IMG/VR virus record: IMGVR_UViG_3300045988_098456
Length of the DNA stretch: 64,000 nucleotides
Origin: a virus
Strand: one strand, 5' to 3'
In this document: positions 2,057 to 52,618 of the stretch, piece after piece
Layout: each line of letters begins with the position of its first letter
How positions within the stretch are numbered: the first letter of the stretch is position 1
Made by a program: the position numbers and the translations under genes
Notes under the pieces: generated by a model
Seen by the model: the letters and a program-made list of their open reading frames with translations, nothing else
What the model was told of the DNA's origin: nothing
The model's database searches: none

Positions 2057-3316
2057 ATGAGATTGATATATAAATTTTATGCAAGACATACTGAGCAGCT
2101 TGATGCTTTGTTCAAGGTTTCAAACAATCTTTGGAACCAAGCCTTGTATGTGTTCCGACAGCGGCTTGATAGCGATGGCACTTGGATTTGGTACAATGAT
2201 ATGGACAAGATTATGAAGCAAACATTGAACCTTAATGGTGAATGTAACTATCGCCTATTGAAAGCCCAGTGTTCGCAGCAGATTTTGCGTGTCTTAGACA
2301 AAAGTATCAAGGCATATTGCAAGTCTATCAAAGATTGGAAGAAGAATCCCGAAAAGTACAAAGCAATGCACCGAATGCCAAGTTATCGCAAACGTGGTGG
2401 CATGTTCAACTTGTTTTATACAAAGCAAAGCGCTGCCATCAAGGATGGGCAGATAAGGTTGTCTAAAAACTTGCTTATAGCTGTTCCTCAATGGGAAAAG
2501 TACGGTGGCGAGGTTTCTAAGTTTAACCAAATCCGATTGATACCAGAGCGAGACAAAGTTAAGGTAGAAATTGTATATGAAAAAGAATTGGCATTGTCTG
2601 ATGTCGACAAGAACAAGTATGCCTCTATTGATTTGGGAATTGATAATCTTGCAACGATGGTCACTTCTGATGGTTGCATCATTTGGAGCGGCAAACACTT
2701 GAAGTCGTACAATAGGTATTTCAATAAGGAACTTGCAAGGTTGCAATCCGTTAAGGATTTGCAGGGCATCAAGCGAAGCACGAAACGCATCATGGCTTTG
2801 TATGCAAAGCGAGATAAACATTTCGAGGATGTGTTTCACAAGGTGAGTCGTCAGATAGTTGATGTGCTTGTTGAAAAGAGAATAGGAACGTTGACTGTAG
2901 GCTACAATGTCGGTTGGAAACAGAGTACCGACATGGGCAAGCGGAACAATCAGAAGTTTGTCCAGCTGCCTTTTGCGAGGTTGACATCCTATCTTGGCTA
3001 CAAGTGTAAATTGGCTGGTATCGACTTCATCGAGCATGAAGAAAGTTATACAAGCAAGTGTGATGCTCTTGCCTTGGAGGAGGTTTGCAAGCATGAGGAT
3101 TATTTAGGAAAGCGTGTCAAGCGTGGCTTGTTTCGCTCATCCGTTGGTAAAATAATCAACGCAGACCAAAATGGAGCTTTGAACATATTGAGAAAAGTAG
3201 TCGGTGATTCCGAGTTCGTTCGGATAATCGGTAGTGGGCACTCGTTATGCCCAGTGCGACACTGCAATCCGTTCAACCGGAGTGTAAGAGGCATAGATAA
3301 TGTATTAAAGAAATAG
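2057..3316 (+). CDS. tnpB: TnpB-like RuvC nuclease (IS200/IS605-family accessory protein, OMEGA-type), solo
   Basis: 419 aa. The RuvC triad is in order: IDLGIDNLATM (D), EHEESYTSKCD (E), NADQNGALNILRK (D). The zinc-finger segment between E and D is degenerate (2 Cys only). No tnpA is nearby. Confidence 0.8.
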   Translation: MRLIYKFYARHTEQLDALFKVSNNLWNQALYVFRQRLDSDGTWIWYNDMDKIMKQTLNLNGECNYRLLKAQCSQQILRVLDKSIKAYCKSIKDWKKNPEKYKAMHRMPSYRKRGGMFNLFYTKQSAAIKDGQIRLSKNLLIAVPQWEKYGGEVSKFNQIRLIPERDKVKVEIVYEKELALSDVDKNKYASIDLGIDNLATMVTSDGCIIWSGKHLKSYNRYFNKELARLQSVKDLQGIKRSTKRIMALYAKRDKHFEDVFHKVSRQIVDVLVEKRIGTLTVGYNVGWKQSTDMGKRNNQKFVQLPFARLTSYLGYKCKLAGIDFIEHEESYTSKCDALALEEVCKHEDYLGKRVKRGLFRSSVGKIINADQNGALNILRKVVGDSEFVRIIGSGHSLCPVRHCNPFNRSVRGIDNVLKK

Positions 3317-3907: not shown

Positions 3908-3926
3908 GAAACAACTGTATCGGATT

Positions 3927-8008: not shown

Positions 8009-8015
8009 TAAAAAT

Positions 8016-8028
8016 GGTGAGACACACC
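8016..8028 (+). promoter_or_regulatory. Leader motif GGTGAGACACACC, copy 2 (intercistronic)
   Basis: Exact 13-mer, 20 nt before the ATG at 8048. No promoter box lies upstream. Confidence 0.6.
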
Positions 8029-8047
8029 ACAAAAACTGTCTAAGAGA

Positions 8048-10079: not shown

Positions 10080-11078
10080 ATGGAGAGAATGACAAGAAAT
10101 GATGCCGCTGCTTATTTAGGTGTAGACCCTCAGACGATTACGAACTGGGTTAACAAGGGCTTGCTTGGAGGCTACAATGATAAAAGCAGTAAACGCTTTT
10201 GGGTGAATGCCGATGATGTTAAGAAGTATTCCGAGAAATACAAGATGTTATCTGTCTCAGAGGATTTACTTGATAGAGAGCAGAAAGAGTTGTTGGCAAG
10301 TGAGCGCAAGGTAAATGCTAAGATACAAATGTTAATGCATGATGCGTTGAACGTTTCTTCTTTCAGCTATGACAAAATAGGTAGTTCACTTTGTATGTTA
10401 TTGGAGTTAACGGCACAATACGGATTACGAGAGAAAAAGATTATGCAAGCATTTTTCAATGGAGACAGAATTAGTGATATAGCCGACAATTTTGAACTAT
10501 CAAGAGAAAGGGTGCGCCAGATTGTTATTAAGGCTATCCGGAAGTTCAACTATGCGATTGAAGAACTTGTAGACTTGAAGATGGAGAACAATTCCTTGAA
10601 AGAGGAAATTAAGAATGTAAAAATGCAGTTTATTATGCAAGAGGGTGAAAAAGAAGAAGAACAACCTGAAGATGTTCCCCCTTCATTGTTCTCCATCAGA
10701 TTAGTTAATTGTAATTTACCGGTTCGTGTCCTTAATGTGACAAAGGCAGCAGACATAGATACTATTGGAGACTTGGTACAATATTCCAAGCTCGATATGA
10801 TAAAATTCCGAAACTTCGGAAAGAAAAGCCTTATGCAATTGGATGACTTTATTCACGAAATGGGATTGGAATGGGGCATGGATAAGGCTAAGATATACGC
10901 AAGGGGTATTCAGCGGATGAAAGATGACTCTTATATTGAAGAGTTGTTTGGAAAGCATCTTGCTGATATAACAAGCGATATTGAGAAAAAGTATAATCTT
11001 TCTCCTGCTGAGGCTATGAAGAGAGCTTATAGTGAAATGAAAAGATATGTAGGATTTAAAGAGAAGAGTAATGAATGA
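10080..11078 (+). CDS. Three-module DNA/RNAP-binding protein: Xis/MerR-like HTH, sigma70 region-4-like HTH and RNAP alpha-CTD-like domain
   Basis: N-terminus MTRNDAAAYLGVDPQTITNWV. Middle ISDIADNFELSRERVRQIVIKAIRKF. C-terminus LPVRVLNVTKAADIDTIGDLVQYSKLDMIKFRNFGKKSLMQLDDFIHEMGLEWGM aligns with the alpha-CTD helix-hairpin-helix. Confidence 0.65.
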   Translation: MERMTRNDAAAYLGVDPQTITNWVNKGLLGGYNDKSSKRFWVNADDVKKYSEKYKMLSVSEDLLDREQKELLASERKVNAKIQMLMHDALNVSSFSYDKIGSSLCMLLELTAQYGLREKKIMQAFFNGDRISDIADNFELSRERVRQIVIKAIRKFNYAIEELVDLKMENNSLKEEIKNVKMQFIMQEGEKEEEQPEDVPPSLFSIRLVNCNLPVRVLNVTKAADIDTIGDLVQYSKLDMIKFRNFGKKSLMQLDDFIHEMGLEWGMDKAKIYARGIQRMKDDSYIEELFGKHLADITSDIEKKYNLSPAEAMKRAYSEMKRYVGFKEKSNE

Positions 11079-12983: not shown

Positions 12984-13209
12984 ATTCTTCTTTCGTTATT
13001 AACTCACCTAATTCAAGAGCATCTTGTGCATAGGTGTTCTCATTAAACTTAAACTCTTTTGGCTTACGCCCTTTACCTTTTGGGTAACACATAAGTTCTT
13101 TATTTACATATTGATAACGGACAACGATGTCATCCTCCCAATAGAAAACATAAACCGACTCTCCGTTTTTAAGGAGGTGGCTGATTTTGTTCTTATCTTT
13201 ATTGTTCAT
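12970..13209 (-). CDS. Small protein co-transcribed with the hydrolase (possible antitoxin/adaptor)
   Basis: Start trimmed to MNNKDKNK behind its own promoter. 14-nt overlap with the hydrolase start. Confidence 0.45.
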   Translation of the reverse strand: MNNKDKNKISHLLKNGESVYVFYWEDDIVVRYQYVNKELMCYPKGKGRKPKEFKFNENTYAQDALELGELITKEEYERF

Positions 13210-13233
13210 AGTCTTTATCTCCTTATTACAATG

Positions 13234-13241
13234 CAAAGATA
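13234..13241 (-). promoter_or_regulatory. -7 promoter box (tatctttg on the minus strand)
   Basis: TAnnTTTG with tttgca about 20 nt upstream on the minus strand. Confidence 0.55.
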
Positions 13242-13303
13242 TAAAAAATACATTAATCTTGCAAATAAATTAATGTTTATTATTTGAAATTTAAATATAT
13301 TAA

Positions 13304-13918
13304 TTATTGAAACGTAGCATAGTAAGCTTGTTGCATAGATACCGACCTTTGCTTCTTACCTCCGTTACTCTTGGCGGTTCTACTTTGCTCATATAATGCA
13401 TGTCCCCAACCGGATGGTTTCTTGGTCTCTTTATAGATTTCTCGCATGGTCTTCCCACCCAACAGCTTGTAGGCTATCGAGTAATTCTCTTTGGCGTAAA
13501 TCATCTTGGCGGTGTTAACTTGTATTTCACCAATAAGTCCGGTTTTCTTGTTCCGTATATTGATGATGTTTCCTGAATAGCCAGTATCCAGTTTCTGTTC
13601 CTTGAGTCTAACGAACTCAAAGCCCTTGTATTTGCCTTTAAGGTCTTTTATTATTTTCGGTATTGACCCTTTATCTGCGATGATGGTTGTTCTGTACGAG
13701 TCCTTAATGTCTTTGATACCATTAGCCTCGCCCTTAGCCTTGCGTACAATGGAGTCAACACTCTTGTAATTGATAGGAGTGACCCTTGCTCCATACTTCT
13801 TAGCTATACCTTCAGCTATAGCTTGTAGCTTGTTACCAACCGACTCGGCTTTTCTCCGCATAGAGGTAGCTTGTGCTCTCAGCCTAGCATATGCCCCATT
13901 ATTACCAACGTCTCCCAT
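13304..13918 (-). CDS. RelA/SpoT-like nucleotide pyrophosphokinase (small alarmone synthetase, possibly toxSAS-like)
   Basis: KSVDSIVRK, IKDSYRTTIIAD, GYSGNIINI and GEIQVNTAKMIYA follow the synthetase-domain motif order. Start trimmed to MGDVG because TAATTTTG overlaps the annotated TTG start. Confidence 0.6.
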   Translation of the reverse strand: MGDVGNNGAYARLRAQATSMRRKAESVGNKLQAIAEGIAKKYGARVTPINYKSVDSIVRKAKGEANGIKDIKDSYRTTIIADKGSIPKIIKDLKGKYKGFEFVRLKEQKLDTGYSGNIINIRNKKTGLIGEIQVNTAKMIYAKENYSIAYKLLGGKTMREIYKETKKPSGWGHALYEQSRTAKSNGGKKQRSVSMQQAYYATFQ

Positions 13919-15260: not shown

Positions 15261-15839
15261 ATGGCAAAACCGAAATTTGATTACAATGGCGATGCTTTCT
15301 ACGATGAGATAGAACAGCTTGCAAAGCAAGGTCAGAAGGATTCTGAAATTGCCTACGCCCTTGGTTTGAAGTTTGGGGTTGACCTAAATCCACAGGTCTT
15401 CAACCGAATGAAAAACGGAAAATACGAGAATTGGAATGAAGACGAAAATGTGGAAAGAGGAGAAAGGATAACTCAATCCCTCGTGCGTGGCAGAGAGTTT
15501 ATCAATGCAATCGTGCGTGGAAGATTCCTTAAATGCGCCCTTGGAGGTGTCAAGGTAAAAGGCAAGACAACCACCAAAAGACACATGGTTGTAGATGGAG
15601 TTATGACAGATGATATAGTAGTGGAAACTAGAGAAACCGAGCAGGAGACCCCACCTAACGTACAAGCTCTTTCTACTTGGTTATTCCATTACGATATGAC
15701 TTGGAGAGAGATACAGAGAGGTAAGAAGGATGAAGAGGAAAAGGGCATTCCTTTTGACCCTAAGAAAGGTATATCCGTCAACAAGTGGATAGAAAGAGAG
15801 ATTGAGCAGGAAGCAGAAGAGCAAGGGGAGGGTGAATAA
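15261..15839 (+). CDS. Terminase small subunit candidate
   Basis: The N-terminus is HTH-like (DSEIAYALGL). The stop overlaps the TerL start (ATAATG). Assigned mainly by position. Confidence 0.5.
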   Translation: MAKPKFDYNGDAFYDEIEQLAKQGQKDSEIAYALGLKFGVDLNPQVFNRMKNGKYENWNEDENVERGERITQSLVRGREFINAIVRGRFLKCALGGVKVKGKTTTKRHMVVDGVMTDDIVVETRETEQETPPNVQALSTWLFHYDMTWREIQRGKKDEEEKGIPFDPKKGISVNKWIEREIEQEAEEQGEGE

Positions 15840-18079
15840 TGGCAAAAACACATTCCGTTTATTATCCGTTATATAATGACAAGACGCATTTCATTTACCT
15901 TATAACGGGAAGCCGTGCGTCAGGAAAAAGTTTCTCAGCTTCTCAGTTTATCGAAAGACTTACTTTTGAATACAATGCAGAAAGAAAGATAGCGCATAAG
16001 ATTCTTTATACACGTTATACGATGGTAAGTGCCGCTATTTCCGTAATTCCAGAGGTTAAAGAGAAGATAGAGATTGATGGTACACAGGATTACTTTAAGA
16101 ATACTAAGACAGATATAGTCAACAAAATGACAGGAGCTGAAATCATGTTCCGTGGTATTCATACGGCTAGTGGTAATCAGACTGCGAAGTTAAAGTCAAT
16201 CCATGGTGTGACTACGTTTGTCGTTGATGAGGCTGAGGAATGGACGAGTGAGGAGGATTTTGAGCGCATCATGCTTTCAATCCGTCAGAAAGGCTTGCAC
16301 AACCGAGTAATAATCATTATGAACCCTTGTGATTCAAATCATTGGGTATATAAGCGTTTCATCGAAAAGACACATAAAGAGGTGTATTTTGATGGCGTTC
16401 CCGTCCAGATCAGTACAGACCCTAGAGTACTTCATATACATACGACCTATCTTGATAATATAAAGCATCTTTCACCTGAGTTCCTTAACGAGGTATTAGA
16501 GATGAAGGAGAATGAACCAGAGAAATATGCTCATATAATGATAGGTAGATGGTCTGATGTATCTGAGGGTGCAATATTCAAGCATGTAGGCATCGTTGAC
16601 AAGTTCCCTAGCAATGCAAGGAAAGTAGCCATCGGAGTAGACTGGGGATATTCGAAAGACTATACTGCTATTGTGAAGTGTGGTATCGTAGACAATCGCC
16701 TATACATAGAGGAACTTTGCTATAGAACGGAAATGTTGTCCAGTGATATTATAAAATTCTTGCGCCCTTATGCGGATGATGGCTTGTTTGTGTATGCGGA
16801 TAGTGCTGACCCTAGGCTTATAGATGAGGTAGCTCTTGGTGGAATAGTTATATATGGAGCACAAAAGGGTGCTGGTTCTATATTGGCTGGTATTGACAAG
16901 ATGCAGACATTCGAAATCTTTGCGACTAGACAATCAGTCCATTTACAGAGCGAGTTCCGCAAATATGTGTGGGCAAAGGACAAGGATGGCAATTATATCA
17001 ATGTTCCCGAAGACCATGATAATCATTGCTTTACCGCAGACACATTAATTTTAACGAATCAAGGATATAAGCAGATTAAGGATATAAACATAGGTGATAT
17101 TGTATATAATTCTGACGGATGGCATCGTGTAAGCAAGACCTTTGATAACGGCATTCAAGAGGTGTGGTCTGCCATTATCGAGCTTGGCGACAGAACAATA
17201 GAGATTAATTCAACACCAAGTCATAAATTCAAAACAAAGGAAGGATGGAAACAATTACAAGACTTGACAGAAAAGGACGTACTTTATATATTCAGAAATT
17301 CAACGGACGAGAATATGTTAAATACCCAAAAGAAATGTATTTTAAGAATGGAGCGACAACTACTTGGCTTCATCGAGCAGTGTGGGAATATTATAATGGA
17401 TGTATTCCGAAAGGCTATCATGTACATCACAAAAACGAAAATGTTTTTGACAATGAAATTGATAATCTTGAACTCCTTGAAGGGCATCAGCATCTTTGTA
17501 TGCACATGCAAGAGAAACTACAGGATGCAGAATATATTGAGAAATTGCAAAAGAACATGGATTACGCAAGAGGGTTTGCAAATAAATGGCATGGTTCAGA
17601 AGAAGGAAAGAGATGGCATAGGTTGCATGGAATTGAGGTCTCAAAAAATTTATCTACACAAGAATATAAGTGTCTGTTTTGTGGCAAAACATATCAAGCA
17701 AAGACTAGTGGCAACCATAAATTTTGTTCTAACGCTTGTAAAACAAGGTACAGATACCATTCTAAGGTGGATAATGAAGAAAGGACTTGTAAATATTGTG
17801 GGGCGAAATTCTCTGTTAACAAATACATCAAAAAAGAGTATTGCTCAAACAAATGTTATTGGGAAGATAGACGAGCAAAAAATAAAGAGAATAAAGATAG
17901 TTAGAAAATATAAAGATCATGTGTACAATATGGAGGTTGAAGGAGAGCATGAATATTTTGCTAACAACATATTGGTTTCAAATTGCATTGATGCTGCACG
18001 GTATTATATTCTTGCCGTATTGCTCGGTAAAGTGATGAAGCCAAGAAAAGCATCTAAATCAGACTTAGGAGTGTACTAA
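15839..18079 (+). CDS. terL: Terminase large subunit, interrupted by an intein (exteins 15839..17026 and 17984..18079)
   Basis: Walker A GSRASGKS, Walker B VVDEAEE. The nuclease motif is split by the insertion: EDHDNH|...|CIDAARYY. Confidence 0.9.
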   Translation: MAKTHSVYYPLYNDKTHFIYLITGSRASGKSFSASQFIERLTFEYNAERKIAHKILYTRYTMVSAAISVIPEVKEKIEIDGTQDYFKNTKTDIVNKMTGAEIMFRGIHTASGNQTAKLKSIHGVTTFVVDEAEEWTSEEDFERIMLSIRQKGLHNRVIIIMNPCDSNHWVYKRFIEKTHKEVYFDGVPVQISTDPRVLHIHTTYLDNIKHLSPEFLNEVLEMKENEPEKYAHIMIGRWSDVSEGAIFKHVGIVDKFPSNARKVAIGVDWGYSKDYTAIVKCGIVDNRLYIEELCYRTEMLSSDIIKFLRPYADDGLFVYADSADPRLIDEVALGGIVIYGAQKGAGSILAGIDKMQTFEIFATRQSVHLQSEFRKYVWAKDKDGNYINVPEDHDNHCFTADTLILTNQGYKQIKDINIGDIVYNSDGWHRVSKTFDNGIQEVWSAIIELGDRTIEINSTPSHKFKTKEGWKQLQDLTEKDVLYIFRNSTDENMLNTQKKCILRMERQLLGFIEQCGNIIMDVFRKAIMYITKTKMFLTMKLIILNSLKGISIFVCTCKRNYRMQNILRNCKRTWITQEGLQINGMVQKKERDGIGCMELRSQKIYLHKNISVCFVAKHIKQRLVATINFVLTLVKQGTDTILRWIMKKGLVNIVGRNSLLTNTSKKSIAQTNVIGKIDEQKIKRIKIVRKYKDHVYNMEVEGEHEYFANNILVSNCIDAARYYILAVLLGKVMKPRKASKSDLGVY
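17027..17983 (+). mobile_element. Intein (319 codons) in TerL
   Basis: Block A CFTADTLILT, block B TPSHKF, C-terminal VYNMEVEGEHEYFANNILVSN followed by Cys+1. Coordinates are in frame with terL. Confidence 0.8.
17245..17904 (+). CDS. HNH homing endonuclease encoded in an alternative frame inside the intein
   Basis: HRAVWEYYNGCIPKGYHVHHKNENVFDNEIDNLELLEGHQH, plus two CxxC..(Y/F)CSNxC zinc-ribbon repeats. Its frame differs from terL. Confidence 0.8.
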   Translation: METITRLDRKGRTLYIQKFNGREYVKYPKEMYFKNGATTTWLHRAVWEYYNGCIPKGYHVHHKNENVFDNEIDNLELLEGHQHLCMHMQEKLQDAEYIEKLQKNMDYARGFANKWHGSEEGKRWHRLHGIEVSKNLSTQEYKCLFCGKTYQAKTSGNHKFCSNACKTRYRYHSKVDNEERTCKYCGAKFSVNKYIKKEYCSNKCYWEDRRAKNKENKDS

Positions 18080-18296: not shown

Positions 18297-18304
18297 TACC
18301 TTTG
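18297..18304 (+). promoter_or_regulatory. -7 promoter box tacctttg
   Basis: TAnnTTTG. It lies over the annotated TTG start of the portal ORF, so the ATG at 18323 is preferred. Confidence 0.5.
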
Positions 18305-18322
18305 CTTCAAAAAGTTATAAGG

Positions 18323-19735
18323 ATGTTTGTAGATTCAATTATTCAGATAAAGACATATTTTCGAAACCTCACGCTCAATGCATTGGGTGTGGAGAGAAGC
18401 ATCTTCGAACGTTTGGAAGATAATGATGTTGATTCTGTCGTAAATATGATGGAACAACATGATTTCGATGTGGATAATGCCATTTCGGAATATAATCCAC
18501 AAACCCATAAGGTGATGAGCCGTGAAGATAAATGGGTAAAGGGAGAAAAGCCGTACAGGACGGAGAAGTTGGCAAGAACAAGACAAAGATACATAAATGA
18601 GGTAGAATTGTTCTTCTTGTTAGGCAATCCGATTATGTGGAAGAAGACTGAAGGTGACGATGAAGCCTTTGAACTATATAAAAAATACTTGAAGAATATA
18701 TACTTTAATACCAAGCTACGTCAATGCAAGCGACTTGCCGGAGCAGAAACCGAAAGCGGTTTTGTTTTTAATTTCTCGCAAAAAAACGGAAAAATGCATG
18801 TTGATGTGTATGTTGCAGCTCGCTCAAAGGGACATAAGATGAGAGAGTTGTTTGACCAGTACGGAAACATGCTTGCTTTTGCTGTAGGCTATTCCTTAAA
18901 GCGAGAGTCAAAGACTATCGAATGTTGGGATATATTGACATCCGTTTTTAACTATCATTGTGAACGTGGTGGCTTTGGGTGGAAAGTGTATAAGTATCCT
19001 AATCCGACAGGAAAGATTAACGGCATCTACTTTCGCCAACCTAAAGCATGGGATGGTGCAGAGCCAAGAATGGAACGTGAAGAAATGCTTGATTCCAAGA
19101 TTGGAGATGCTAACAACTACTTTGCTGACCCTATTGCCGCTGCTACTGCTGACGTGATACAATCAATCCCTAAGCGGAACAAGCCAGGTAAACTCATACA
19201 ACTTACAGGCAAGAACTCTAGGTTTGAATATATCAACCCACCTCAGAATTCCGAAATCCGCAAGGCAGAGAAAGAAGACTTGGCTCAGTCTATATTGTTT
19301 GATACGTTTACACCGGATATGTCACCGGAACTGATGAAAGCTATGAGTACGCTTACTAGTGTCGGCATAAAACGAGCGTTGGTATTGGGTTACATCAAGC
19401 GAGCGAACCGAATGGAAATCTATGAAGAACTTGTCGGTAGATTATCGCATGTGATTATAGCCGTAATGAAGGAACTATATCCTGAGATGAGAAGCAAGTT
19501 GGATAAGTTGGAGGTCGAATTCGAATTTGCCGAACCTTTCGAGGATGACAAAAAGGATAAGTGGAAAGTAATAGCGGAACTATATAATCAAGGCGTACTT
19601 TCTTTAGAGACTGCTGTACAAATGCTGGCTCTAACTGACGCTCCTGCTGAAGAAATTGAAAAGATACGCAAGGATGCAGAAGATAAAGTAGCGTTAGCTG
19701 CAAAGGTAAAGGGAAACGAAAATACAACTTCATAA
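18323..19735 (+). CDS. Portal protein (SPP1 Gp6-like)
   Basis: About 470 aa, immediately after terL. The overall pattern (NPQTHKVMSR..., C-terminal ELYNQGVLSLETAVQML) fits the Gp6 portal family by eye. Confidence 0.7.
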   Translation: MFVDSIIQIKTYFRNLTLNALGVERSIFERLEDNDVDSVVNMMEQHDFDVDNAISEYNPQTHKVMSREDKWVKGEKPYRTEKLARTRQRYINEVELFFLLGNPIMWKKTEGDDEAFELYKKYLKNIYFNTKLRQCKRLAGAETESGFVFNFSQKNGKMHVDVYVAARSKGHKMRELFDQYGNMLAFAVGYSLKRESKTIECWDILTSVFNYHCERGGFGWKVYKYPNPTGKINGIYFRQPKAWDGAEPRMEREEMLDSKIGDANNYFADPIAAATADVIQSIPKRNKPGKLIQLTGKNSRFEYINPPQNSEIRKAEKEDLAQSILFDTFTPDMSPELMKAMSTLTSVGIKRALVLGYIKRANRMEIYEELVGRLSHVIIAVMKELYPEMRSKLDKLEVEFEFAEPFEDDKKDKWKVIAELYNQGVLSLETAVQMLALTDAPAEEIEKIRKDAEDKVALAAKVKGNENTTS

Positions 19736-27709: not shown

Positions 27710-29191
27710 ATGACAGCAAAGGTAAAGAATCTGATGAACGAACTCGTAAAGAGGGAAACATTGGAGCAAGGCGGTGATGATGCCTACAATGCGTTAGATG
27801 ATAAGAATACGTGGTTTGCAAGGAGATATATCCGAGATAAGGACAATATTATCGACTGCATACAGAATATGCTCATCCTCGGCATTTATCCTAAGAAGGA
27901 ATATAAAGAGGTTGATATAGTATCAGAGAATAAGGCAAGAAAGATATGCCCTATGCACTTCGACCCTTGGAACGTTCTATTCCATGCCATAAAGATAGTG
28001 CTAGAACCTATAGTAGAGCGAGTGCTCATATATGATTCAAGTGCTGGCAGAAAAGGCAAAGGTCAGGTATTCGGAGCATTGAGAACCCAACGGGCTATCA
28101 GAAGGCATCCGAAATGGGCTTATTATGGGAAAGGAGACCTCAGAAAGTACTATCTGACAATACCTCATCCTGTTCTGCTTATGATACTCAGACGATATGT
28201 AGACGATGATTTGTTCATCGAGCTTATAGATAAGACTATGTTGGACTATTCTGTAGATATAGAACCTCTGATGCTTGAAGAATATGAGCGCAAGAAGAAG
28301 TACTGCATTTGGGCAGACAAAAGTGAAATAAAGTATCTCGGGTGTAAGCGTGGTGTAACGCTCGGTAATCCTATCGGTCAGATGTTAGGTAATCTTGCTT
28401 TAAGTCTTGTAGACTATGCTATGGTTCATATCGAGCATGCTAAAGGTTATCATCGGCATTGTGACGATATTACCTTCTTCGCTGAAACAAAGGAAGAAGC
28501 TGTTCGGTTGCTTGGAAGATTGGACTACTGGTGTAACCAATATGGTCTCTGTCTGAAGGCGAGCGGTCATGTAGCAGAACTGCATAACGAAGAGACAGGT
28601 GTAAAAGGAAGATGCTTAGACTTTGTAGGTTATGTATATTCTCGCAAGAACATGAGGATGCGCAGACGTACAAAGGTTAAGGCTGCAAAGGCTTTCGGTA
28701 GAGTTAAGAGCCGTAAAAGGCGGCAGGAACTTATCGGAGCTTATTGGGGAATAGCAAGATGGGGAAAGTGTAAGCATCTTTGGAAGAAGATTGTCGGAGA
28801 TTACCCAGAAAATTATAAACAAGAATTTAAAAGGAAAAAGAACATGAGTTTCAAGGATATAGGAATCGTATCACCGAAATACTCGGTCGATAAAAACGGA
28901 AAACGTATATTTTCCGTACAGGAATACAATCAAGCTCTTCTCTGTCAGAATCACACCATCATCAACATATTAGACTTTGAAGATGATGTAGAGGTTAATG
29001 GCAAGGGCGGTCGATGCTGGGTTCTGTACGAAATGAAAGATAGCCCAGGAACAGAGTATAAGTTCTGCACTTCATCAAAACTCATAAGGCAGAAACTTAT
29101 TGAAGTAAGGGAGAAGAATCTTCTGCCAGTCAATGACACTTTCCTGTTCAGAGTAGACAAAGGTGGCAGATATACTTATGATTTAGATTAA
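27710..29191 (+). CDS. DGR-type reverse transcriptase with a C-terminal extension
   Basis: FHAIKIVLEPIVERV, SSAGRKGKGQVFGA, GDLRKYYLTIPH, GVTLGNPIGQMLGNLAL, YHRHCDDITFFA. About 130 additional C-terminal residues have no recognised motif. Confidence 0.85.
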   Translation: MTAKVKNLMNELVKRETLEQGGDDAYNALDDKNTWFARRYIRDKDNIIDCIQNMLILGIYPKKEYKEVDIVSENKARKICPMHFDPWNVLFHAIKIVLEPIVERVLIYDSSAGRKGKGQVFGALRTQRAIRRHPKWAYYGKGDLRKYYLTIPHPVLLMILRRYVDDDLFIELIDKTMLDYSVDIEPLMLEEYERKKKYCIWADKSEIKYLGCKRGVTLGNPIGQMLGNLALSLVDYAMVHIEHAKGYHRHCDDITFFAETKEEAVRLLGRLDYWCNQYGLCLKASGHVAELHNEETGVKGRCLDFVGYVYSRKNMRMRRRTKVKAAKAFGRVKSRKRRQELIGAYWGIARWGKCKHLWKKIVGDYPENYKQEFKRKKNMSFKDIGIVSPKYSVDKNGKRIFSVQEYNQALLCQNHTIINILDFEDDVEVNGKGGRCWVLYEMKDSPGTEYKFCTSSKLIRQKLIEVREKNLLPVNDTFLFRVDKGGRYTYDLD

Positions 29192-43496: not shown

Positions 43497-44542
43497 AGAT
43501 ACAGACATTTGAACTATGTGCCGGATATGATTCTCAACTGATGGCTTTGGAACGACTGAAGAAGAAACATTCTGATTTCGATTACGAGTGCATCGGATGG
43601 TCTGAGATAGAGCCAAGCGCAATAACCTTGCATAACGCTTGTTTTCCTAGTCTGTCCGGTAAGAACTTTGGTGATATGACCAAGATAGATTGGAGCAAGG
43701 TTGCTGATTTTGACTTGCTGACATATTCAACACCTTGCCAGTCTGTTTCGCAAGCTGGAAAGCAGGAAGGAATAGAGGAGGGAAGTAACACCCGTTCTTC
43801 TATCCTTTGGTTCACAAGAAACGCCATTATTACCAAGAGACCGAAATACCTATTGATGGAGAATGTTGAGGCTTTGGTTCAAACAAAGTTCATTGGGTTC
43901 TTTAATAAGTGGCGCAAGGAATTAGAATCCTACGGATATGTTAACTATGCTAAGGTGGTAAATGCAGCCGACTGCGGTGTTCCTCAGAACAGAAAGCGTG
44001 TCTTCATGCTCTCTATACGAAATGATGGTGATAAGATAGATTATCATTTTCCGAGAAAGACAAAGCTGAAGAAACATTTGGTAGATGTCTTGGAGGAAAA
44101 TGTGGACGAAAAGTACTTTATGAGCGATGCTCTGCTATGTAAAGAGAAATTTGTGTCAAATGAATGGAAAGAGCCTATGAGTGCAGCTATAAGAACTCGT
44201 TCTGAAGGGAAGTGGATAAAAGGCGAAAAGCATAGTCCAAATGTCGAGCTTGGAAAGAATATAGCCAATACCATTACATCTGCGAGCAAGGACTCCTTGG
44301 TTGTGCTTGGAGAGACAAGGTTGTGCATTAGGCGTTTGACTCCGAGAGAACTCTTCCGTTTGATGGACGTTGACGAAGAATACATAGACAAGATGCTTGA
44401 AAGTGGAGTGTCGAAGTCAAGTCTTCAAAAGGCTGCTGGAAATTCGATTGTTGTAGCTTGCATGGAGAGGATATTGGAGGAACTTTGGTTTTCTGAGAGT
44501 AATGTTAAGGTCGCTGATGATGGTCAGCTATGCTTATTTTAA
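43493..44542 (+). CDS. dcm: DNA cytosine-5 methyltransferase
   Basis: Motif I FELCAGYDS, motif IV STPCQSVSQAGK, ENV, QNRKRVF, GNSIVV. Confidence 0.9.
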   Translation: MKIQTFELCAGYDSQLMALERLKKKHSDFDYECIGWSEIEPSAITLHNACFPSLSGKNFGDMTKIDWSKVADFDLLTYSTPCQSVSQAGKQEGIEEGSNTRSSILWFTRNAIITKRPKYLLMENVEALVQTKFIGFFNKWRKELESYGYVNYAKVVNAADCGVPQNRKRVFMLSIRNDGDKIDYHFPRKTKLKKHLVDVLEENVDEKYFMSDALLCKEKFVSNEWKEPMSAAIRTRSEGKWIKGEKHSPNVELGKNIANTITSASKDSLVVLGETRLCIRRLTPRELFRLMDVDEEYIDKMLESGVSKSSLQKAAGNSIVVACMERILEELWFSESNVKVADDGQLCLF

Positions 44543-44823: not shown

Positions 44824-45218
44824 TTATGGATAGGGAAAAATTAAAGAAAGATTACGAGAATGCTTGCAATGCTTACTTGGAGGCATTTTGTGAGAAGCAT
44901 GAGTTTTACGGATTGGATAATCCGGAGACATATTGGATTGATACAGGTGGAATAGCCAATTGCGGTGATTTAACTTTCGATATGGCTACTATTGTAACTG
45001 ATATTGACAAGGATGCTCCAGAAGAAGAGTTGTTGAAGTGGTACGATTATACTATTGAAGCTAGTGAGTTCAATTTGCCTGTTCCAAACTTCGACCATTG
45101 GCTTATGGGGTGTCCTATAACACCAAGTAAATGGTTCGAGAATATGCGAGCAAAGCGCAAGGAGTTTGAGGACTTGTTGAAACAAGAAAATGAAAGGCTG
45201 AAAAATGGAAAGAAGTAA
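44820..45218 (+). CDS. Hypothetical protein
   Basis: 132-aa ORF. Confidence 0.45.
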   Translation: MIMDREKLKKDYENACNAYLEAFCEKHEFYGLDNPETYWIDTGGIANCGDLTFDMATIVTDIDKDAPEEELLKWYDYTIEASEFNLPVPNFDHWLMGCPITPSKWFENMRAKRKEFEDLLKQENERLKNGKK

Positions 45219-45483
45219 TCTTTTTAATCATTTGTTGAGGATATATGATGAAGGTCTCAGTATGAAGACTACCGAGCTTGAATATGGTACACTTGAAGTT
45301 ACTGTAGAGAATCGAAGCCAAGACAAGAAAATTACATTCTTAGCAAAGGGCATGGAGGATGCCAAGCAGAAAGCAGCGGAATGGCATGTTGGACAAATGC
45401 TCTTGAATTGCGATGATTTCGAGGAGATTGTTATGTTTTTGGCTCAAAGAAAGAAACTTAAAAAGGAAATGTCAAATGGATAA
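45205..45483 (+). CDS. Hypothetical protein
   Basis: 92-aa ORF. Confidence 0.45.
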   Translation: MERSNLFNHLLRIYDEGLSMKTTELEYGTLEVTVENRSQDKKITFLAKGMEDAKQKAAEWHVGQMLLNCDDFEEIVMFLAQRKKLKKEMSNG

Positions 45484-45820
45484 GAATTTTAGAAGTTGTT
45501 TTTGTTGCGTCCATTTCTTGGTAATACAAAATACAAGTATAGGAAATATTTTGAAATGCAAGAAAGGTAGCACTACGAAAGTATAAGGGAAGAGAGTGAC
45601 AGAAATTGCTGCAATGTGCAAAAACTACAAAGCGTGTGGCACACGTTAAAGAACATGGTAAGACGAATTTAAGGATACAGGTGATAGTATCAAGAGTGTT
45701 TGAGAAAGAGAAAAATGTAAAAACTTTAAAATAAATGGTAGAAATCATATTAAATAATTAAAATACATTAATAAAATAAAGAAACACATTAAAACGCTTG
45801 CATGTTTCAAATATTCTTTG

Positions 45821-45828
45821 TATCTTTG
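45821..45828 (+). promoter_or_regulatory. -7 promoter box tatctttg (within the approx 110-bp repeated promoter/leader module)
   Basis: tttgca -33-like element upstream. The module is repeated at 52.5 kb. Confidence 0.6.
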
Positions 45829-45865
45829 CATTGTAATTAAGAAATAAAGGTTATTAATTTGAAAA

Positions 45866-45878
45866 GGTGAGACACACC
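45866..45878 (+). promoter_or_regulatory. Leader motif GGTGAGACACACC, copy 5
   Basis: Exact 13-mer, 16 nt before the ATG at 45895. Confidence 0.6.
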
Positions 45879-45894
45879 ATAAAAACTGGTGATA

Positions 45895-46227
45895 ATGACA
45901 AAGAAAGAAATTTTAAAACAATGGCTTGATGAGCCGAAAGTGAAATATTGTGGCAGTTCAAATTTTACGTTAGGTTATGGTGATGGCTGGGATTGGGTTA
46001 AAGATACTCTACGACCAGCTATCACGAAGAATGCGATGTTCCTCAGATTCTTGGAGCATGGCTTCCGTGAGATAGAAGAGTTTCTGAAATCCAAGTCCGG
46101 AAAACCTAGCGAGGATGATTGCACATTATATTCCGTTGGGTACAAAGATGGAGTCAAGGATGCTATGATAGCAATAAAGAATAGATTTGAAAATTTAAAA
46201 TTCAAGTTTCAGAAGCCATTAGGTTAG
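45895..46227 (+). CDS. Hypothetical protein
   Basis: Start trimmed to MTKKEIL. Confidence 0.45.
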   Translation: MTKKEILKQWLDEPKVKYCGSSNFTLGYGDGWDWVKDTLRPAITKNAMFLRFLEHGFREIEEFLKSKSGKPSEDDCTLYSVGYKDGVKDAMIAIKNRFENLKFKFQKPLG

Positions 46228-46231
46228 AACG

Positions 46232-46462
46232 ATTATCCATTCAATCGTCCGGAGCGGATTACCCTCAGCCTCGAATGGAATTGGGAGCTACGTTAGGGAT
46301 GAATGTATAGGCACGTCAGGATGTCCGTCCAAGTTCTGTCCTCTGCGGTTCGTGGTTAAAAGTGGCGAAAGCTGCGGTGCTGCGGACAAGAAACCACCCC
46401 ATAACATTGGCGATGGGCGCACAACCCCACTTTGGTGGGAGATTTATTTATTAATTTAAATT
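46232..46462 (+). ncRNA. Candidate IscB omega RNA (HEARO-type), boundaries approximate
   Basis: A G+C-rich, ORF-free, helix-dense 230 nt lies directly upstream of iscB (e.g. acgatt/aatcgt, ctgcgg...ccgcag-type pairings, cccac-tttg-gtggg at the 3' end). AT-rich DNA lies on both sides. Confidence 0.6.
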
Positions 46463-46470
46463 GATTTTTT

Positions 46471-47718
46471 ATGATTTACGTAAGGAGCAAGGATGGTAAG
46501 GCATTGATGCCAAGCGAGCGTGGAGGGAGGATAGGCTATCTTCTTCGCCACGGCAAGGCTCATGTAGTCAGCCGTGTTCCGTTTGTCGTTCAGTTGGATT
46601 ATGAGAGCACCACCTATACGCAGGAAGTGAGCCTTGGCATTGATGCTGGTTCAAAGCATATTGGCGTTTCAGCTAGTTCCGAGAAGAAGGAGCTGCTTGC
46701 AGCGCAGGTTGAGTTAAGAATTGATGTTGTGAACTTGCTATCTACTCGCAGGGAGTTGAGACGAACAAGGCGAAACCGCAAGACACGTTATCGCAAGTCT
46801 CGTTTTGACAATCGAAAGCGAAAGGATGGTTGGCTAGCACCCAGTGTTGAACAAAAGATTGAGAGTCACTTGAAGGTTATCCGCTTGGTTCATAAGTTAC
46901 TTCCAATTACGAAGACCACAATCGAGGTTGCTCAGTTTGATGCTCAGAAAATCAAGAATCCAGACATCAATGGTGAGGAGTATCAGCAGGGTGAACAAAT
47001 GGGATTTTGGAACGTGAGGGAGTACGTCTTGGCTAGGGATGGGAACAAGTGTGTTCATTGCAAGGGTAAGAGTAAAGACCCAATCTTGAATGTTCACCAC
47101 TTGGAGAGCCGGAAGACAGGTGGCAATTCCCCTAGTAATCTCGTTACTCTATGTGAGACTTGTCACAAGGCTTACCATCGTGGGGAGTTCGAGTTGAAAA
47201 TCAAGCGTAGAAATTCCTTGCGTGATGCAGCCGTTATGAATATTATGCGTTGGGCGGTCTATGAGCGAGCGAAGGAAGAATTTGAGAACGTTCACTTGAC
47301 TTATGGTTATGTAACCAAGCATACTCGCATAGAGAATGGTATTGCCAAGACCCATGCAGCCGATGCTTTCTGTATTGCTAAGAATATTAACGCAATGAGG
47401 TTGAGTACTTTCTTTATGTGCCGTTGTGTTCCTAGCCATACGAGAAGGTTGCACGTTGCCAACCCTAAGAAGGGCGGCATCCGCAGAAGCACGATAGCCT
47501 CTCATAAGATAGGTAAGTCCCGCTTTCAGCGTTTCGACATGGTGCGTTGGAAGGGTAAGGAATGCTTTATCTTTGGCAGCACGCATGGTAATGTTGTTTT
47601 GCGTAAAATTAATGGCGTAAAGGTGCATGAAACGCAAGCTGTGAGTGCCAAAACGATAAAGTTTTTAAAAAGAATTAGAAATAACATTTTAGTGGAAGTA
47701 AGGGCTTCCGAAAATTGA
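46471..47718 (+). CDS. iscB: IscB RNA-guided nuclease (OMEGA system; RuvC plus HNH)
   Basis: PLMP motif (KALMPS), RuvC-I LGIDAGSKHIGVS, Arg-rich bridge helix RRELRRTRRNRKTRYRKSRF, RuvC-II IEVAQFD, HNH CVHCKG...NVHHLESR...LVTLCETCHKAYH, RuvC-III THAADAF. Confidence 0.85.
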   Translation: MIYVRSKDGKALMPSERGGRIGYLLRHGKAHVVSRVPFVVQLDYESTTYTQEVSLGIDAGSKHIGVSASSEKKELLAAQVELRIDVVNLLSTRRELRRTRRNRKTRYRKSRFDNRKRKDGWLAPSVEQKIESHLKVIRLVHKLLPITKTTIEVAQFDAQKIKNPDINGEEYQQGEQMGFWNVREYVLARDGNKCVHCKGKSKDPILNVHHLESRKTGGNSPSNLVTLCETCHKAYHRGEFELKIKRRNSLRDAAVMNIMRWAVYERAKEEFENVHLTYGYVTKHTRIENGIAKTHAADAFCIAKNINAMRLSTFFMCRCVPSHTRRLHVANPKKGGIRRSTIASHKIGKSRFQRFDMVRWKGKECFIFGSTHGNVVLRKINGVKVHETQAVSAKTIKFLKRIRNNILVEVRASEN

Positions 47719-47724
47719 ATTATT

Positions 47725-48015
47725 ATGGATTTAGGAAAGGCGATTAAGACAATGAGGGTAAGCAAGGGCTTGACCCAACGACAACTTGGTAAGGCTATCG
47801 GTTGTAGTGAGACAAATATGTTGTTTATGGAGACTGGAAGAACGTTTCCACGTAAGAGTAAGATTGATGCAATATGCAAGGTATTGGAGATTCCGATGTC
47901 ATATTTGTTGATGTTCTCTATTACACCGGATGATATTCCGGAAGATAAGCAGAGTTTGTACACAAGCATCGTTGAGCCGATGCGTAACGAATTTATTAGG
48001 GAGTTATTGCGATGA
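47725..48015 (+). CDS. XRE-type HTH protein
   Basis: IKTMRVSKGLTQRQLGKAIGCSETNMLFMETG. Confidence 0.65.
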   Translation: MDLGKAIKTMRVSKGLTQRQLGKAIGCSETNMLFMETGRTFPRKSKIDAICKVLEIPMSYLLMFSITPDDIPEDKQSLYTSIVEPMRNEFIRELLR

Positions 48016-49862: not shown

Positions 49863-50119
49863 TGAGAATAGAACCTAGTGAGTTCTTGCCGATAGGTAAC
49901 GAATTTCAGAAAATCTTCGGTGTAAGCTTTGGAAAGTTTATAGATATGCGGTTTCTTTTGGCAAGAAAAGAACTGGTCTTCAACTTGCTGAAGTTCACAG
50001 ATTGGCTTGAAGAGTGCTATCCGGATGAGTGTTCCATAGATGGAGTGAGTTATAATGCTGTTGTCGAGCGAAAGTTTGGTAAGCGAGGTGTTAAAATGAT
50101 AAAGAAGATGATAGGATGA
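49862..50119 (+). CDS. Hypothetical protein
   Basis: 85-aa ORF. Confidence 0.45.
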   Translation: MRIEPSEFLPIGNEFQKIFGVSFGKFIDMRFLLARKELVFNLLKFTDWLEECYPDECSIDGVSYNAVVERKFGKRGVKMIKKMIG

Positions 50120-50820
50120 AGTATATGGGTAGTAAGGCTAGAATCGTGCATGAAATATTGCCGATTATGCTGGACAAAGAGCATGATACGTTTGTAGATG
50201 CTTTCTGTGGCGGCTGTAGCGTTATAGAGAATGTTCCGAACACGTATCGAAGGATTGCCAACGATAAGAATAGGTATCTTATCGAAATGTGGAAGTATCT
50301 TCAGAATGATGGGTTTGTCTTCAACCATATTAGTAAGACGTTGTATAACTTTGCACGAGACTGCTATCACGGAAAGAATAATTTCTTCACAGAGGCTGGT
50401 GTCGGACTAATTGGCTTTATGGCGAGCTTTAATGGTCGCTTCTTTGATGGTGGCTATAGCGGACATAATGTTGTCGGCAAGAACGGAAAGGCAAGAGATT
50501 ACATAAGGGAACAGATAGAAAACACAATGCGTGATGTGCCTCTCATCAAAGGTGTTGAGTTCTATAGTGGTAGCTATGATGAACTTGTGATACCGGATAA
50601 TAGTATAGTATATTGCGATTTGCCTTACAAAGCTACGAAAAAGTATGATGTATCAAAGAATTTCGATTACGAAAGATTCTATATATGGTGCATGGAAATG
50701 GCTAGAAGAGGTCATAAGGTATTTATCAGCGAATACCAGATGCCACAGGAGGTCAGATGTGTTTGGGAAAAGGAAGTAACCAATTCCCTTAACCCGAATA
50801 TTACAAACCAATTCCCTTAA
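50116..50820 (+). CDS. dam: DNA N6-adenine methyltransferase (Dam/D12 class), C-terminus altered by a 28-bp duplication
   Basis: MKYMGSKARIV, FVDAFCGGCSV, YCDLPY. Confidence 0.85.
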   Translation: MKYMGSKARIVHEILPIMLDKEHDTFVDAFCGGCSVIENVPNTYRRIANDKNRYLIEMWKYLQNDGFVFNHISKTLYNFARDCYHGKNNFFTEAGVGLIGFMASFNGRFFDGGYSGHNVVGKNGKARDYIREQIENTMRDVPLIKGVEFYSGSYDELVIPDNSIVYCDLPYKATKKYDVSKNFDYERFYIWCMEMARRGHKVFISEYQMPQEVRCVWEKEVTNSLNPNITNQFP

Positions 50821-50835
50821 CCCGAATATTACAAA
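50780..50835 (+). repeat. Perfect 28-bp tandem duplication (ccaattcccttaacccgaatattacaaa x2)
   Basis: 50780..50807 is identical to 50808..50835, checked base by base. Confidence 0.95.
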
Positions 50836-50876
50836 GAGACCTATTGAAAGGTTGTTTACTATTGATTAGGATTAGG

Positions 50877-51035
50877 ATGAAAGAAACTTATTGTTTAGAA
50901 GATACGCTTTACAATACAAAGCGCTACTTCACTATGGAGAATGGAGTGGTGTCAGGAACAGAACTTGCACAAGAATACTTTAACGTGTTCCTTGATCTTG
51001 CAAGTCGGCTTGGTTATAATGTAGTGAAATTATGA
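50877..51035 (+). CDS. Hypothetical small protein
   Basis: Start trimmed to MKETYCLED. Confidence 0.35.
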   Translation: MKETYCLEDTLYNTKRYFTMENGVVSGTELAQEYFNVFLDLASRLGYNVVKL

Positions 51036-51193
51036 CTAGGCGAGTACACAAGGATTGTCCGTTCACGGCAGAAGAATTGGATGAGTTCAGAGCAGCTTTG
51101 TATAATGTGAATACATCTTTTCACTGCTGTAATGCAGCTCCGGTAGACTGGTCGGCAGGATGGCAGCGGAATGATATAAGAAAGACGAGGTAG
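51032..51193 (+). CDS. Hypothetical 53-aa protein (below the ORF-track cutoff)
   Basis: Hand-translated as MTRRVHKDCPFTAEELDEF...; ATGA overlap. Confidence 0.3.
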   Translation: MTRRVHKDCPFTAEELDEFRAALYNVNTSFHCCNAAPVDWSAGWQRNDIRKTR

Positions 51194-51194
51194 G

Positions 51195-51630
51195 ATTTCC
51201 ATAATCGACCAAATACCCACGTGTCAAAGCCGTGTGATGCCCAGCGTGGGGGCGGGATTGTAAACTTAGGAGTCACACGGCTTTATTTTGAAGTTTCATA
51301 ACTACAAATAGCCTATCGCTAATGGTTGTTCCCTTGGGCAGGGAGATAGTTAATACCGCATCGTAAGATGTGAACACTTAAAATTTGCCGACAACCATTG
51401 GCAAATGCCTATTAGTCAGCGGCAGAAACCCTTGGGCAAGGTTGGGAATGGTGCGCAATCTTCAACTTCGCATCTGTCGCTGACAAACGGATGAGTGGCA
51501 TTGGCAACTGAAAGCAATGCGACCCTCGCAAACTTGGAGCGGATTTTCTGATTAAACATTCCGTGTACTGAGTCACTGGGGAGGAATTGGCCCAACAAGG
51601 GTTTAAATCCCTTGTCATCCACTAATTTTA
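51195..51630 (+). ncRNA. Unassigned structured non-coding region (approx 430 nt); strand not established
   Basis: There is no plus-strand ORF and the region is G+C-richer than its flanks. Many long complementary segments are present (12-bp 51226/51273, 9-bp 51321/51391, 7-bp 51383/51400, 11-bp 51415/51474, 6-bp 51498/51515, 6-bp 51596/51609, 6-bp 51489/51615). Confidence 0.45.
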
Positions 51631-52359: not shown

Positions 52360-52540
52360 TAGTAATCGTAGAAATCCATAATGCTATTTTGTTTTAAATG
52401 TTTACCCCATCACTATATATAATAATGTAGTGGTGGGGATTTTTGTGTTAACGTCAGTAAATTATCGGTGTTATATGTTATGATATATTAAAGAATAAAA
52501 GAAACACATTAAAAAGTTTGCATATTTCAGATATTCTTTG

Positions 52541-52548
52541 TATCTTTG
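52541..52548 (+). promoter_or_regulatory. -7 promoter box tatctttg (second copy of the repeated module)
   Basis: Same context as at 45821. Confidence 0.6.
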
Positions 52549-52585
52549 CATTGTAATTAAGAAACAAGGTTACTAATTTTAAAAA

Positions 52586-52598
52586 GGTGAGACACACC
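52586..52598 (+). promoter_or_regulatory. Leader motif GGTGAGACACACC, copy 6
   Basis: Exact 13-mer, 20 nt before the GTG at 52619. Confidence 0.6.
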
Positions 52599-52618
52599 AC
52601 AAAAACTGTAAGAAGAAA

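Follow-up and report, generated by a model that had tools for sequence, protein, structure and literature searches.

What does an RNA-guided nuclease do in a temperate phage, and which DNA would it cut? The question is raised by a 64,000-nucleotide stretch of a virus genome (IMG/VR record IMGVR_UViG_3300045988_098456, hereafter the window), in which an initial annotation had recognised an IscB gene with a candidate omega RNA directly upstream. In this study, the locus was compared with its relatives in phage and metagenome collections. The identity and intactness of the protein and of its RNA were observed, as were the boundaries of the unit that carries them, its mobility, and purifying selection. 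We conclude that positions 46201 to 47719 are very probably a non-autonomous element of the ISC/IS200-IS605 type lodged among the early genes of a temperate gut phage, whose IscB would cut the joints found where the element is missing, and so preserve or spread it.

An intact IscB under purifying selection

The iscB gene (46471..47718, + strand) encodes 415 amino acids (aa), with the PLMP, RuvC-I, bridge helix, RuvC-II, HNH, RuvC-III and C-terminal parts in succession. Pfam recognised RRXRR (PF14239, residues 2-174, E 4.4e-60) and HNH (PF01844, residues 194-237, E 8.6e-8), and the best matches among PDB sequences were IscB structures (11hr, 7utn and 7xht, OgeuIscB; E ~1e-47). A profile made from this IscB family and distant phage relatives matched the solved IscB structures with E 2.7e-72, the alignment reaching position ~350-389 of 416 and the last ~65 residues not being confidently aligned. 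At the other end, residues 2-111 align to OgeuIscB 4-115.

The motifs stand in the order first described for this protein: (A)LMP at 11-14, RuvC-I D58, an Arg-rich segment at 93-118, RuvC-II E152, HNH, and RuvC-III H295/D298. Pfam, the alignment to OgeuIscB and invariance in 30 distinct copies all bear out this full motif set. In these copies D58, E152, H295 and D298, each aligned with its OgeuIscB counterpart, do not vary, and neither does the HNH motif (C194/C197...H209-H210...C228/C231, i.e. CxxC...HH...CxxC); in the PLMP region, which reads K-A-L-M-P at residues 10-14, L12, M13 and P14 are invariant or nearly so. The check for inactivating substitutions that had been recommended thus found every catalytic residue present. 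The HNH domain lies inside RuvC, the feature that separates IscB from IsrB.

Among 410 copy pairs with a synonymous divergence (dS) above 0.1, and reaching more than 1, the median ratio of nonsynonymous to synonymous divergence (dN/dS) of iscB was 0.098 (range 0.03-0.20): the gene is under strong purifying selection. Metagenomes hold more than 120 clusters (defined at 90% identity) with at least 88% identity to this IscB, nearly all of them 415 aa long. Judged by its sequence, open reading frame (ORF) 46471..47718 is confirmed as an intact IscB; it is evidently functional, and RNA-guided cleavage is predicted.

The omega RNA and its predicted guide

Upstream of iscB, the G+C content between 46200 and 46470 is 0.45-0.50, against 0.22-0.40 in the flanks, as the initial annotation had noticed. 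In a local scan of 2.4 kb, the Rfam HEARO model (RF02033) matched over its full length (model positions 1-211) at 46247..46425, with 62.7 bits and E 1e-11. This score is below the gathering score of 83, which is why a scan of the whole window at gathering thresholds shows no HEARO. The covariance-model search suggested for 46200..46470 therefore gives an answer that depends on the threshold: a local HEARO match on the one hand, nothing at the gathering score on the other.

The structure was derived with RNAalifold from a 31-sequence alignment of the family. Across its 65 pairs, 99.1% of positions are paired and 15 pairs have changed on both sides; covariation amounts to 0.229, compared with 0.132 in shuffled alignments (attained in 0/500 shuffles) and at most 0.069 in slid ones. 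The scaffold (46201..46456, + strand) includes the Rfam core (46247-46425) and a terminal hairpin (46425-46439) followed by a U-rich tail. Its first helix, P1, pairs 46206-46212 with 46249-46255 (alignment columns 6-12, GUUYCGG, with columns 55-61, CCGRAGC) and encloses two hairpins, at 46214-46225 and 46230-46247, and thereby has the topology known from canonical HEARO P1 domains. The pair at columns 9-58 is CG in 16 sequences, UA in 11 and UG in 4, without any mismatch, and the first enclosed hairpin exchanges AGCC/GGCU, AGUC/GACU, AACC/GGUU and AGCC/GGUU. Between the left end of the element and the start of P1 lie 5 nt, a spacing shared with canonical HEARO RNAs at distant phage IscB loci (105-150 bits). 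On the strength of the RF02033 match and of covariation, we take the DNA upstream of iscB as confirmed to be the omega (HEARO) RNA of the IscB, as had been proposed, with a scaffold that appears to start at the first bases of the element, 46201.

Rfam places P1 differently, with model position 1 at 46247. This leaves 46 conserved nucleotides unexplained and suggests a fixed guide inside the element, in which case the invariant 46231-46246, 5' of the Rfam P1, would be the guide and 46201-46230 an unrelated transposon-end sequence. The 17 nt ahead of 46247 are indeed nearly invariant in all copies, and the small hairpin implied by Rfam, GUCCG/CGGAU, is 98.7% pairable. However, no pair of this hairpin has changed on both sides, whereas covariation backs the other P1 (columns 6-12/55-61, with the CG/UA/UG exchange at 9-58), within which the candidate guide is the stem of hairpin b. 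In 596 Gb of species-representative genomes, moreover, the 17-mer found no true target except element copies: one match was a true copy (L089; L numbers denote the loci compared), and the other 46 were at chance level. A fixed internal guide was therefore rejected, its probability being very small.

With the scaffold placed by covariation at the left edge of the insert, the guide would be encoded by the 16 nt directly before it, ATTTGAAAATTTAAAA (46185..46200, + strand), at the 3' end of ORF 45889..46227, a phage gene. With these bases the phage sequence stops at the sharp left end of the element, and the predicted guide length is about 14-20 nt. In IsrB and IscB systems, the guide directly precedes the scaffold (PMC9581776). 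The guide had first been sought around the stop codon of the upstream ORF; this stop (46225-46227) turned out to lie inside the scaffold, ~30 nt downstream of the predicted guide. In the window, 46185..46200 has no second perfect match beyond itself. Since the guide would be copied from the phage's own flank, its expected target is the element-free version of the same phage locus. Among the roles initially proposed, homing, and possibly action against competing relatives in co-infection, fit a flank-derived guide and its part in retention; targeting of host or plasmid DNA does not.

Could the unit nevertheless be a decaying, inactive relic? It has no TnpA, its HEARO match stays below the Rfam threshold, and P1 of the window copy contains a single A.C mismatch, points that all speak against an active element. 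Truncated relatives also exist, with an IscB of 388 aa in L015, one of 404 aa in L014 and a 176-bp remnant in L124. Against this stand the dN/dS of 0.10 over 410 pairs, the invariance of all catalytic residues, the more than 120 clusters nearly all of full length, and RNA pairs kept by compensatory changes, so that decay seems hardly credible.

Other structured RNAs were seen on distant IscB-bearing viral contigs: a Twister-P5 ribozyme match (L037:6778-6827, 44.8 bits), a Fusobacteriales-1 RNA (L041:4938-5056, 96.6 bits) and, on one locus, two HEARO copies (L048:633-875 and 2656-2895).

A discrete mobile unit found at many sites

The ends of the unit were defined, as had been advised, by comparison with relatives lacking the insert. 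Phage MT835610.1 (L001), which comes from human faeces, matches the window collinearly on either side of the insert, 45082-46201 corresponding to L001 376-1467 and 47725-50107 to L001 1478-3861, and is devoid of 46202-47724. A further 107 IMG/VR alleles are empty at the same place (site A), where a linker, TAGGAGGTTAA in 94 of them and TAGGAGGTTTTA in 13, lies between ...TTTAAAA and ATGGATTTAGG. The whole mobile unit, missing from MT835610.1 and these 107 alleles, spans 46201..47719 (+ strand, 1519 bp). The first estimate, 46228..47718, was corrected by this comparison: the scaffold starts inside the end of ORF 45889..46227, whose last 9 codons and stop are element sequence, this ORF normally ending in ...RFENLK and a stop.

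Close relatives of the IscB (82-95% identity) were found on 34 IMG/VR contigs, a 17-mer scan for the RNA found 52 stretches, and copies were delimited by BLAST and end-anchored extraction. They form one conserved ~1.52-kb unit with differing flanks; on related human-gut phage contigs, about 20 left flanks can be told apart (sites A to T). MT835610.1 itself has the element elsewhere, at site B; site T, occupied in an ENA contig (L154), corresponds to window 10080..11078; and several phages with the element at other sites are empty at the window site. The window contains no second copy. The unit is a discrete insert with defined ends, and it is mobile. Copies at the window site are mutual closest relatives, with a dS of 0.32-0.42 and a similar identity of their flanks, which suggests long residence at this site rather than a recent burst.

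At the junctions examined, the flanking phage ORFs are read on the element's strand, and at 9 sites the right junction lies 4-8 nt ahead of the ATG of the next gene. A preference for the same orientation as the gene upstream has been reported for IscB elements (Meers et al., bioRxiv 10.1101/2023.03.14.532601). Genes starting with an HTH_17/excisionase-like motif (M..TR.EAA.YLG) were seen directly downstream of four independent sites, J (L023/L027), L (L028), R (L106/L125) and T (L154). Target preference, recombination between paralogues, and chance are all candidate explanations for such insertions.

Twelve copies (~330 bp) have no iscB. In them, the first ~250 nt (the omega RNA) are followed by a strong hairpin, CATCCC-CTTC-GGGGATG, whose tail is T-rich, and then by the right end; examples of these mini elements are L096:303-640, L098:3135-3470, L102 (- strand), L126, L133, L138 and L145, with shorter forms in L106 and L125. 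Minis occupy sites B, F, H, O and R, where other phages hold full copies, and they parallel the protein-less derivatives described as PATEs by Meers et al. On each of four contigs, a full copy is accompanied by a mini copy at a different site, so that one nuclease gene is combined with two flank-derived guides.

The element ends and the TTGAA motif

The left end, TTCAAGTTYCGGAAGCC..., and the right end, ...GGAAG-loop-CTTCCGAAAGTTGAA, are both sharp and common to more than 60 copies. They form imperfect inverted ends, 46201-46216 (TTCAAGTTTCAGAAGC) facing 47704-47719 (GCTTCCGAAAATTGAA), and the extreme ends of the copies are inverted repeats at 14-16/16 positions. Subterminal hairpins are present near both ends, at 46214-46225 and 47694-47709. 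The right one (47694..47709, + strand, GGAAG-TAAGGG-CTTCC) lies inside the 3' end of iscB, 5 nt from TTGAA, is conserved among copies, and is read here as a putative transposon-end hairpin.

The 3' boundary is TTGAA (47715..47719, + strand), which comes after the hairpin and GAAAA and includes the iscB stop codon TGA (47716-47718). TTGAA or a close variant (TTAAA, TCGAA, xxGGA) was found at the right boundary of every copy. We consider it a probable target/transposon-adjacent motif (TAM) of TTGA type, by comparison with the TAM of DtIsrB, NTGA/TTGA (PMC9581776), and with that of GstIscB, TTCAT, whose iscB-strand reading is ATGAA (Meers et al., bioRxiv 10.1101/2023.03.14.532601). TTGAA and the left end of the element, TTCAA(G), are distinguished by the central (third) base. 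This one-base difference matches the published logic by which a transposon-encoded motif (TEM) distinct from the TAM spares the RNA-producing locus from self-cleavage (Meers et al.). Alternatively, TTGAA might derive purely from the target and not be carried by the element. The pentamer variants follow the site and not the element body, xxGGA at site H being common to full-length and mini copies, and the window's empty allele at site T has a diverged TTAAG at the homologous position; but the empty allele of site D reads ATGC there.

No direct repeat flanks the unit. A DDE-type transposon that duplicates a TA or AT target site was tried as an explanation and rejected: the flanks read A...T, and positions -2/+2 are complementary, not identical.

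The subterminal hairpins differ from one another, and the ends are inverted repeats; both traits are atypical for substrates of a Y1 TnpA and count against an IS200-IS605-type origin. Neither a Y1 TnpA nor a serine recombinase was found among the 80 window ORFs of 95-260 aa, in line with the absence of TnpA reported initially, nor was a Y1 TnpA present in the annotated neighbourhoods examined. The unit might thus have been moved by other means, either through a double-strand DNA transposase or recombinase that recognises the inverted ends (16 bp) and targets A|T, or through break-induced copying, with IscB as a passenger or retention module. The nearly constant A before and T after the unit, the complementarity of -2/+2 at 10/13 sites, and the lack of a simple-insertion footprint (site I coming closest) would also fit such a mechanism. 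On the other hand, no transposase candidate was linked to the element at any locus examined, and target-site duplications are absent. The inverted look is largely due to P1 and to TEM (TTCAA) and TAM (TTGAA) being reverse complements, and the G.U pairs of the left hairpin suit folding of the iscB strand and so point to RNA. As the architecture otherwise matches published IscB elements (Meers et al.), we consider mobilisation of this kind unlikely.

How the element would be maintained

What is known of the family leads us to the following expectations for guide usage, TAM, cleavage, homing and the mobilising enzyme of the element. Transcription would enter from the upstream phage gene, and give an RNA made of ~16 nt of phage flank at its 5' end (46185-46200, the guide) followed by the ~250-nt scaffold (46201-46456). 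The 415-aa IscB would bind this guide-scaffold RNA, and the complex would cut double-strand DNA wherever a guide match precedes a TTGA-type TAM, i.e. at the joint left by absence or excision of the element (left flank + TTGAA). At the window site, the joint of a precise excision would read left flank + TTGAATTATT. The break would then be repaired by homologous recombination with an element-bearing sister genome or a co-infecting relative, so that the element is restored or spread (Meers et al.; PMC13565253). Movement to a new site would require a transposase in trans, as none is encoded in the window.

Phage DNA is replaced at the insertion sites

Relative to the empty allele, or to a second junction variant, between 7 nt and ~1 kb of phage sequence is missing from the filled alleles at sites A, A5, B, D, H, J and T. 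The length replaced varies with the site: A (11 nt), J (12-16 nt), H (147 nt, a 59-aa ORF), B (224 nt), D (~790 nt) and T (~1 kb). At site D, the left junction (L007/L013/L018 ~2726; window 43739-43780) falls inside a C5 cytosine methyltransferase gene, just past its PCQ catalytic motif, and the right junction (window 44533) just beyond the end of this gene, about two thirds of which are replaced. Left junctions vary: one right junction is combined with 2-3 left junctions in A/A5/L002 and in B/O, the A5 left junction being ~250 nt further upstream than that of A. Site I alone is close to a simple insertion, with a 2-nt AT overlap.

These observations weigh against an IscB element that simply inserts next to a TAM and re-cuts its empty site. 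The empty allele expected in that case (left flank + TAM + right flank) is not what is seen at A, B, D, H, J and T; at site A, the element + TTATT of the filled allele stands in place of TAGGAGGTTAA in the common empty allele, and extant empty alleles of this site may be uncleavable, as they have no TTGA beside the guide match. Precise donor joints were searched for and not found, either in IMG/VR for site A (107/107 empty alleles carry TAGGAGGTTAA or TAGGAGGTTTTA, none a shorter linker) and site B, or in JGI metagenomes for both sites. Extant empty alleles may, however, not be the ancestral ones. Four causes of replacement are possible: the guide-proximal end may undergo flush deletions, and the guide would then be reset; two nearby copies may recombine; cleavage-resistant empty alleles may be the only ones to survive; or an enzyme other than a Y1 TnpA may mobilise the element.

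The same footprint raises another possibility, namely that the element is mainly a gene drive or a weapon of competitor exclusion between co-infecting phages. In such a scheme, the guide would match the intact alleles of relatives, which cutting would convert or destroy; flush deletions at the guide-proximal end would repeatedly make new guides, and conversion would replace neighbouring accessory genes. The DNA lost at seven sites and the multiple left junctions opposite a single right one are in keeping with this. In addition, a T follows the left junction in the empty alleles of 6/7 sites, with a TAM-like register of ATGA at site H and ATGG at site B, no cleavable empty allele of site A survives in the collections searched, and a review lists homing into co-infecting phages as conceivable (PMC13565253). 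Yet no drive is visible at site A, where 107 empty alleles face ~8 filled ones and have TAGG, not TTGA, after the guide match. Same-site copies, with a dS of about 0.3-0.4, like their flanks, suggest long vertical residence, and the T after the junction may be either a 1-2 nt end-joining microhomology with TTCAAG or a TAM-like T-R-R, both explaining it equally. We therefore hold this role to be possible, though rather improbable.

A transposase-free variant would go further. Breaks at the guide end would be repaired through 1-2 nt of microhomology, adjacent accessory DNA would be deleted and a new upstream guide thereby acquired, relatives would be converted, and minis would serve as extra guides for a single IscB. 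Variants whose new guide and TAM-like motif match the intact allele of a relative would convert it in co-infection, and so replace accessory genes. This version appears doubtful, more so than a drive in general. Retention and homing of an ISC/IS200-IS605-type element at its own joints remains our preferred explanation.

The phage and its other genes

The location in a temperate phage, as initially stated, is clear from the gene content. A tRNA 3' fragment at 1-48, the sole match of the whole-window Rfam scan at gathering thresholds, is followed by a tyrosine integrase gene (292-1491), and the window further encodes a large terminase (15839-18079), a portal protein (18302-19735), tail proteins and two DNA methyltransferases.

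Around the element, the layout first described was also recovered. Upstream of ORF 45889..46227 lies an AT-rich promoter-like module (45731..45895, + strand), repeated at 52483-52608 (~125 nt) with 88% identity and, as weaker partial copies, near 3828-3917, 7600-7678, 8012-8038 and 13205-13311. It contains TATCTTTG at 45821-45828, a candidate -7 box that resembles those of Bacteroidota. This module is the likely source of a read-through transcript bearing guide and omega RNA. Downstream, outside the element, is a phage gene of the XRE helix-turn-helix (HTH) type (47725..48015, + strand; Pfam HTH_31, E 3.9e-10), whose start codon is 5 nt past the element end and which is kept in element-free phages. 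Further on, a segment (window 50108..51210) with the gene of a Dam-like N6-adenine methyltransferase (50116..50820) is missing from MT835610.1, between L001 3861 and 3873.

Just past the integrase gene, ORF 2057..3316 (+ strand) encodes a TnpB of 419 aa (Pfam OrfB_IS605, E 2.8e-23; Cas12f1-like TNB, E 3.2e-10). By its sequence it is a second OMEGA-type nuclease of the same prophage. It has no adjacent Y1 TnpA, and no Rfam match for an RNA partner was found in 1400-3900. One of the window ORFs of 95-260 aa matches Pfam HNH_3 (E 2.4e-12) and may represent a further endonuclease of the phage, a free-standing, protein-only HNH enzyme. A reverse transcriptase gene (27710..29191, + strand; PHROG 1423, E 5e-46; Pfam RVT_1) adjoins tail-protein genes, which suggests a diversity-generating retroelement.

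Relation to known systems

OgeuIscB (PDB 7UTN, 7XHT, 8CSZ) shares with the phage protein the domain order, the catalytic residues (D58/E152/H209-210/D298 aligned), a guide RNA encoded directly upstream, and an origin in human-gut material. It is larger (496 versus 415 aa), with ~40% identity over the aligned core, a weakly aligned C-terminal part (~65-100 residues) and a P1 domain much longer than the one found here. The TAM of OgeuIscB is NWRRNA, compared with the boundary motif TTGAA here.

The ISGst IscB elements of Geobacillus stearothermophilus (Meers et al. 2023) resemble the phage element in architecture. They too are non-autonomous and oriented with the upstream gene, their omega RNA abuts one end and takes its guide from the flank, their TAM lies past the other end (TTCAT, reverse complement ATGAA, versus TTGAA here), an internal motif is TAM-like yet different, and protein-less PATEs exist. 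They differ in residing on a bacterial chromosome, whereas the element described here belongs to a phage family, without an identified cognate TnpA, and has inverted-repeat ends and empty alleles that are not simple insertions.

With respect to Rfam RF02033, the RNA aligns over the full length of the model, and the pseudoknot strands and core helices are conserved; but P1 is compacted to a 7-bp stem and two small hairpins, which the model mis-aligns, and an extra 3' hairpin lies outside the model. Such a hairpin beyond RF02033 was also noted by Meers et al. (bioRxiv 10.1101/2023.03.14.532601).

Among phage systems, the free-standing homing endonuclease genes Seg and Mob of T4, which move by intronless homing, provide a parallel, with a nuclease wedged between conserved phage genes, presence or absence of the insert, and replacement of neighbouring DNA. 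Seg and Mob recognise their targets by protein, unlike the flank-copied RNA predicted here, and the present element has transposon-like ends and many sites.

The novelty implied by the initial annotation has to be lowered. IscB, the omega/HEARO RNA and a homing role are already established, the last published by Meers et al. (bioRxiv 10.1101/2023.03.14.532601), and Goltsman et al. 2022 (PMC9755519) class more than 16% of HEARO/IscB contigs as viral or prophage. They report the association of HEARO/IscB with viral and prophage contigs; here, the ends, at least 20 sites, the empty alleles and the minis are resolved for one phage family. The phage IscB element is thus ordinary in kind and well supported, and the compacted P1 below the Rfam threshold, the guide-only minis in phages and the replacement footprint are of secondary interest.

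The element is notable mainly for having moved to at least 20 positions among related gut phages. An adjacent tnpA is lacking for about 98% of iscB genes (Meers et al., bioRxiv 10.1101/2023.03.14.532601), and these phages, with their many sites, more than 100 empty alleles, minis and replacement footprint, offer a natural data set on how such transposase-less genes persist and move. Genuine omega RNAs of an entire lineage escape the gathering threshold of Rfam HEARO, and a compact 415-aa IscB, abundant in the human gut, with a shortened P1 and a probable TTGA TAM, may be of interest for genome editing. Finally, because phages meet in co-infection, RNA-guided homing could act between genomes, beyond sister chromosomes.

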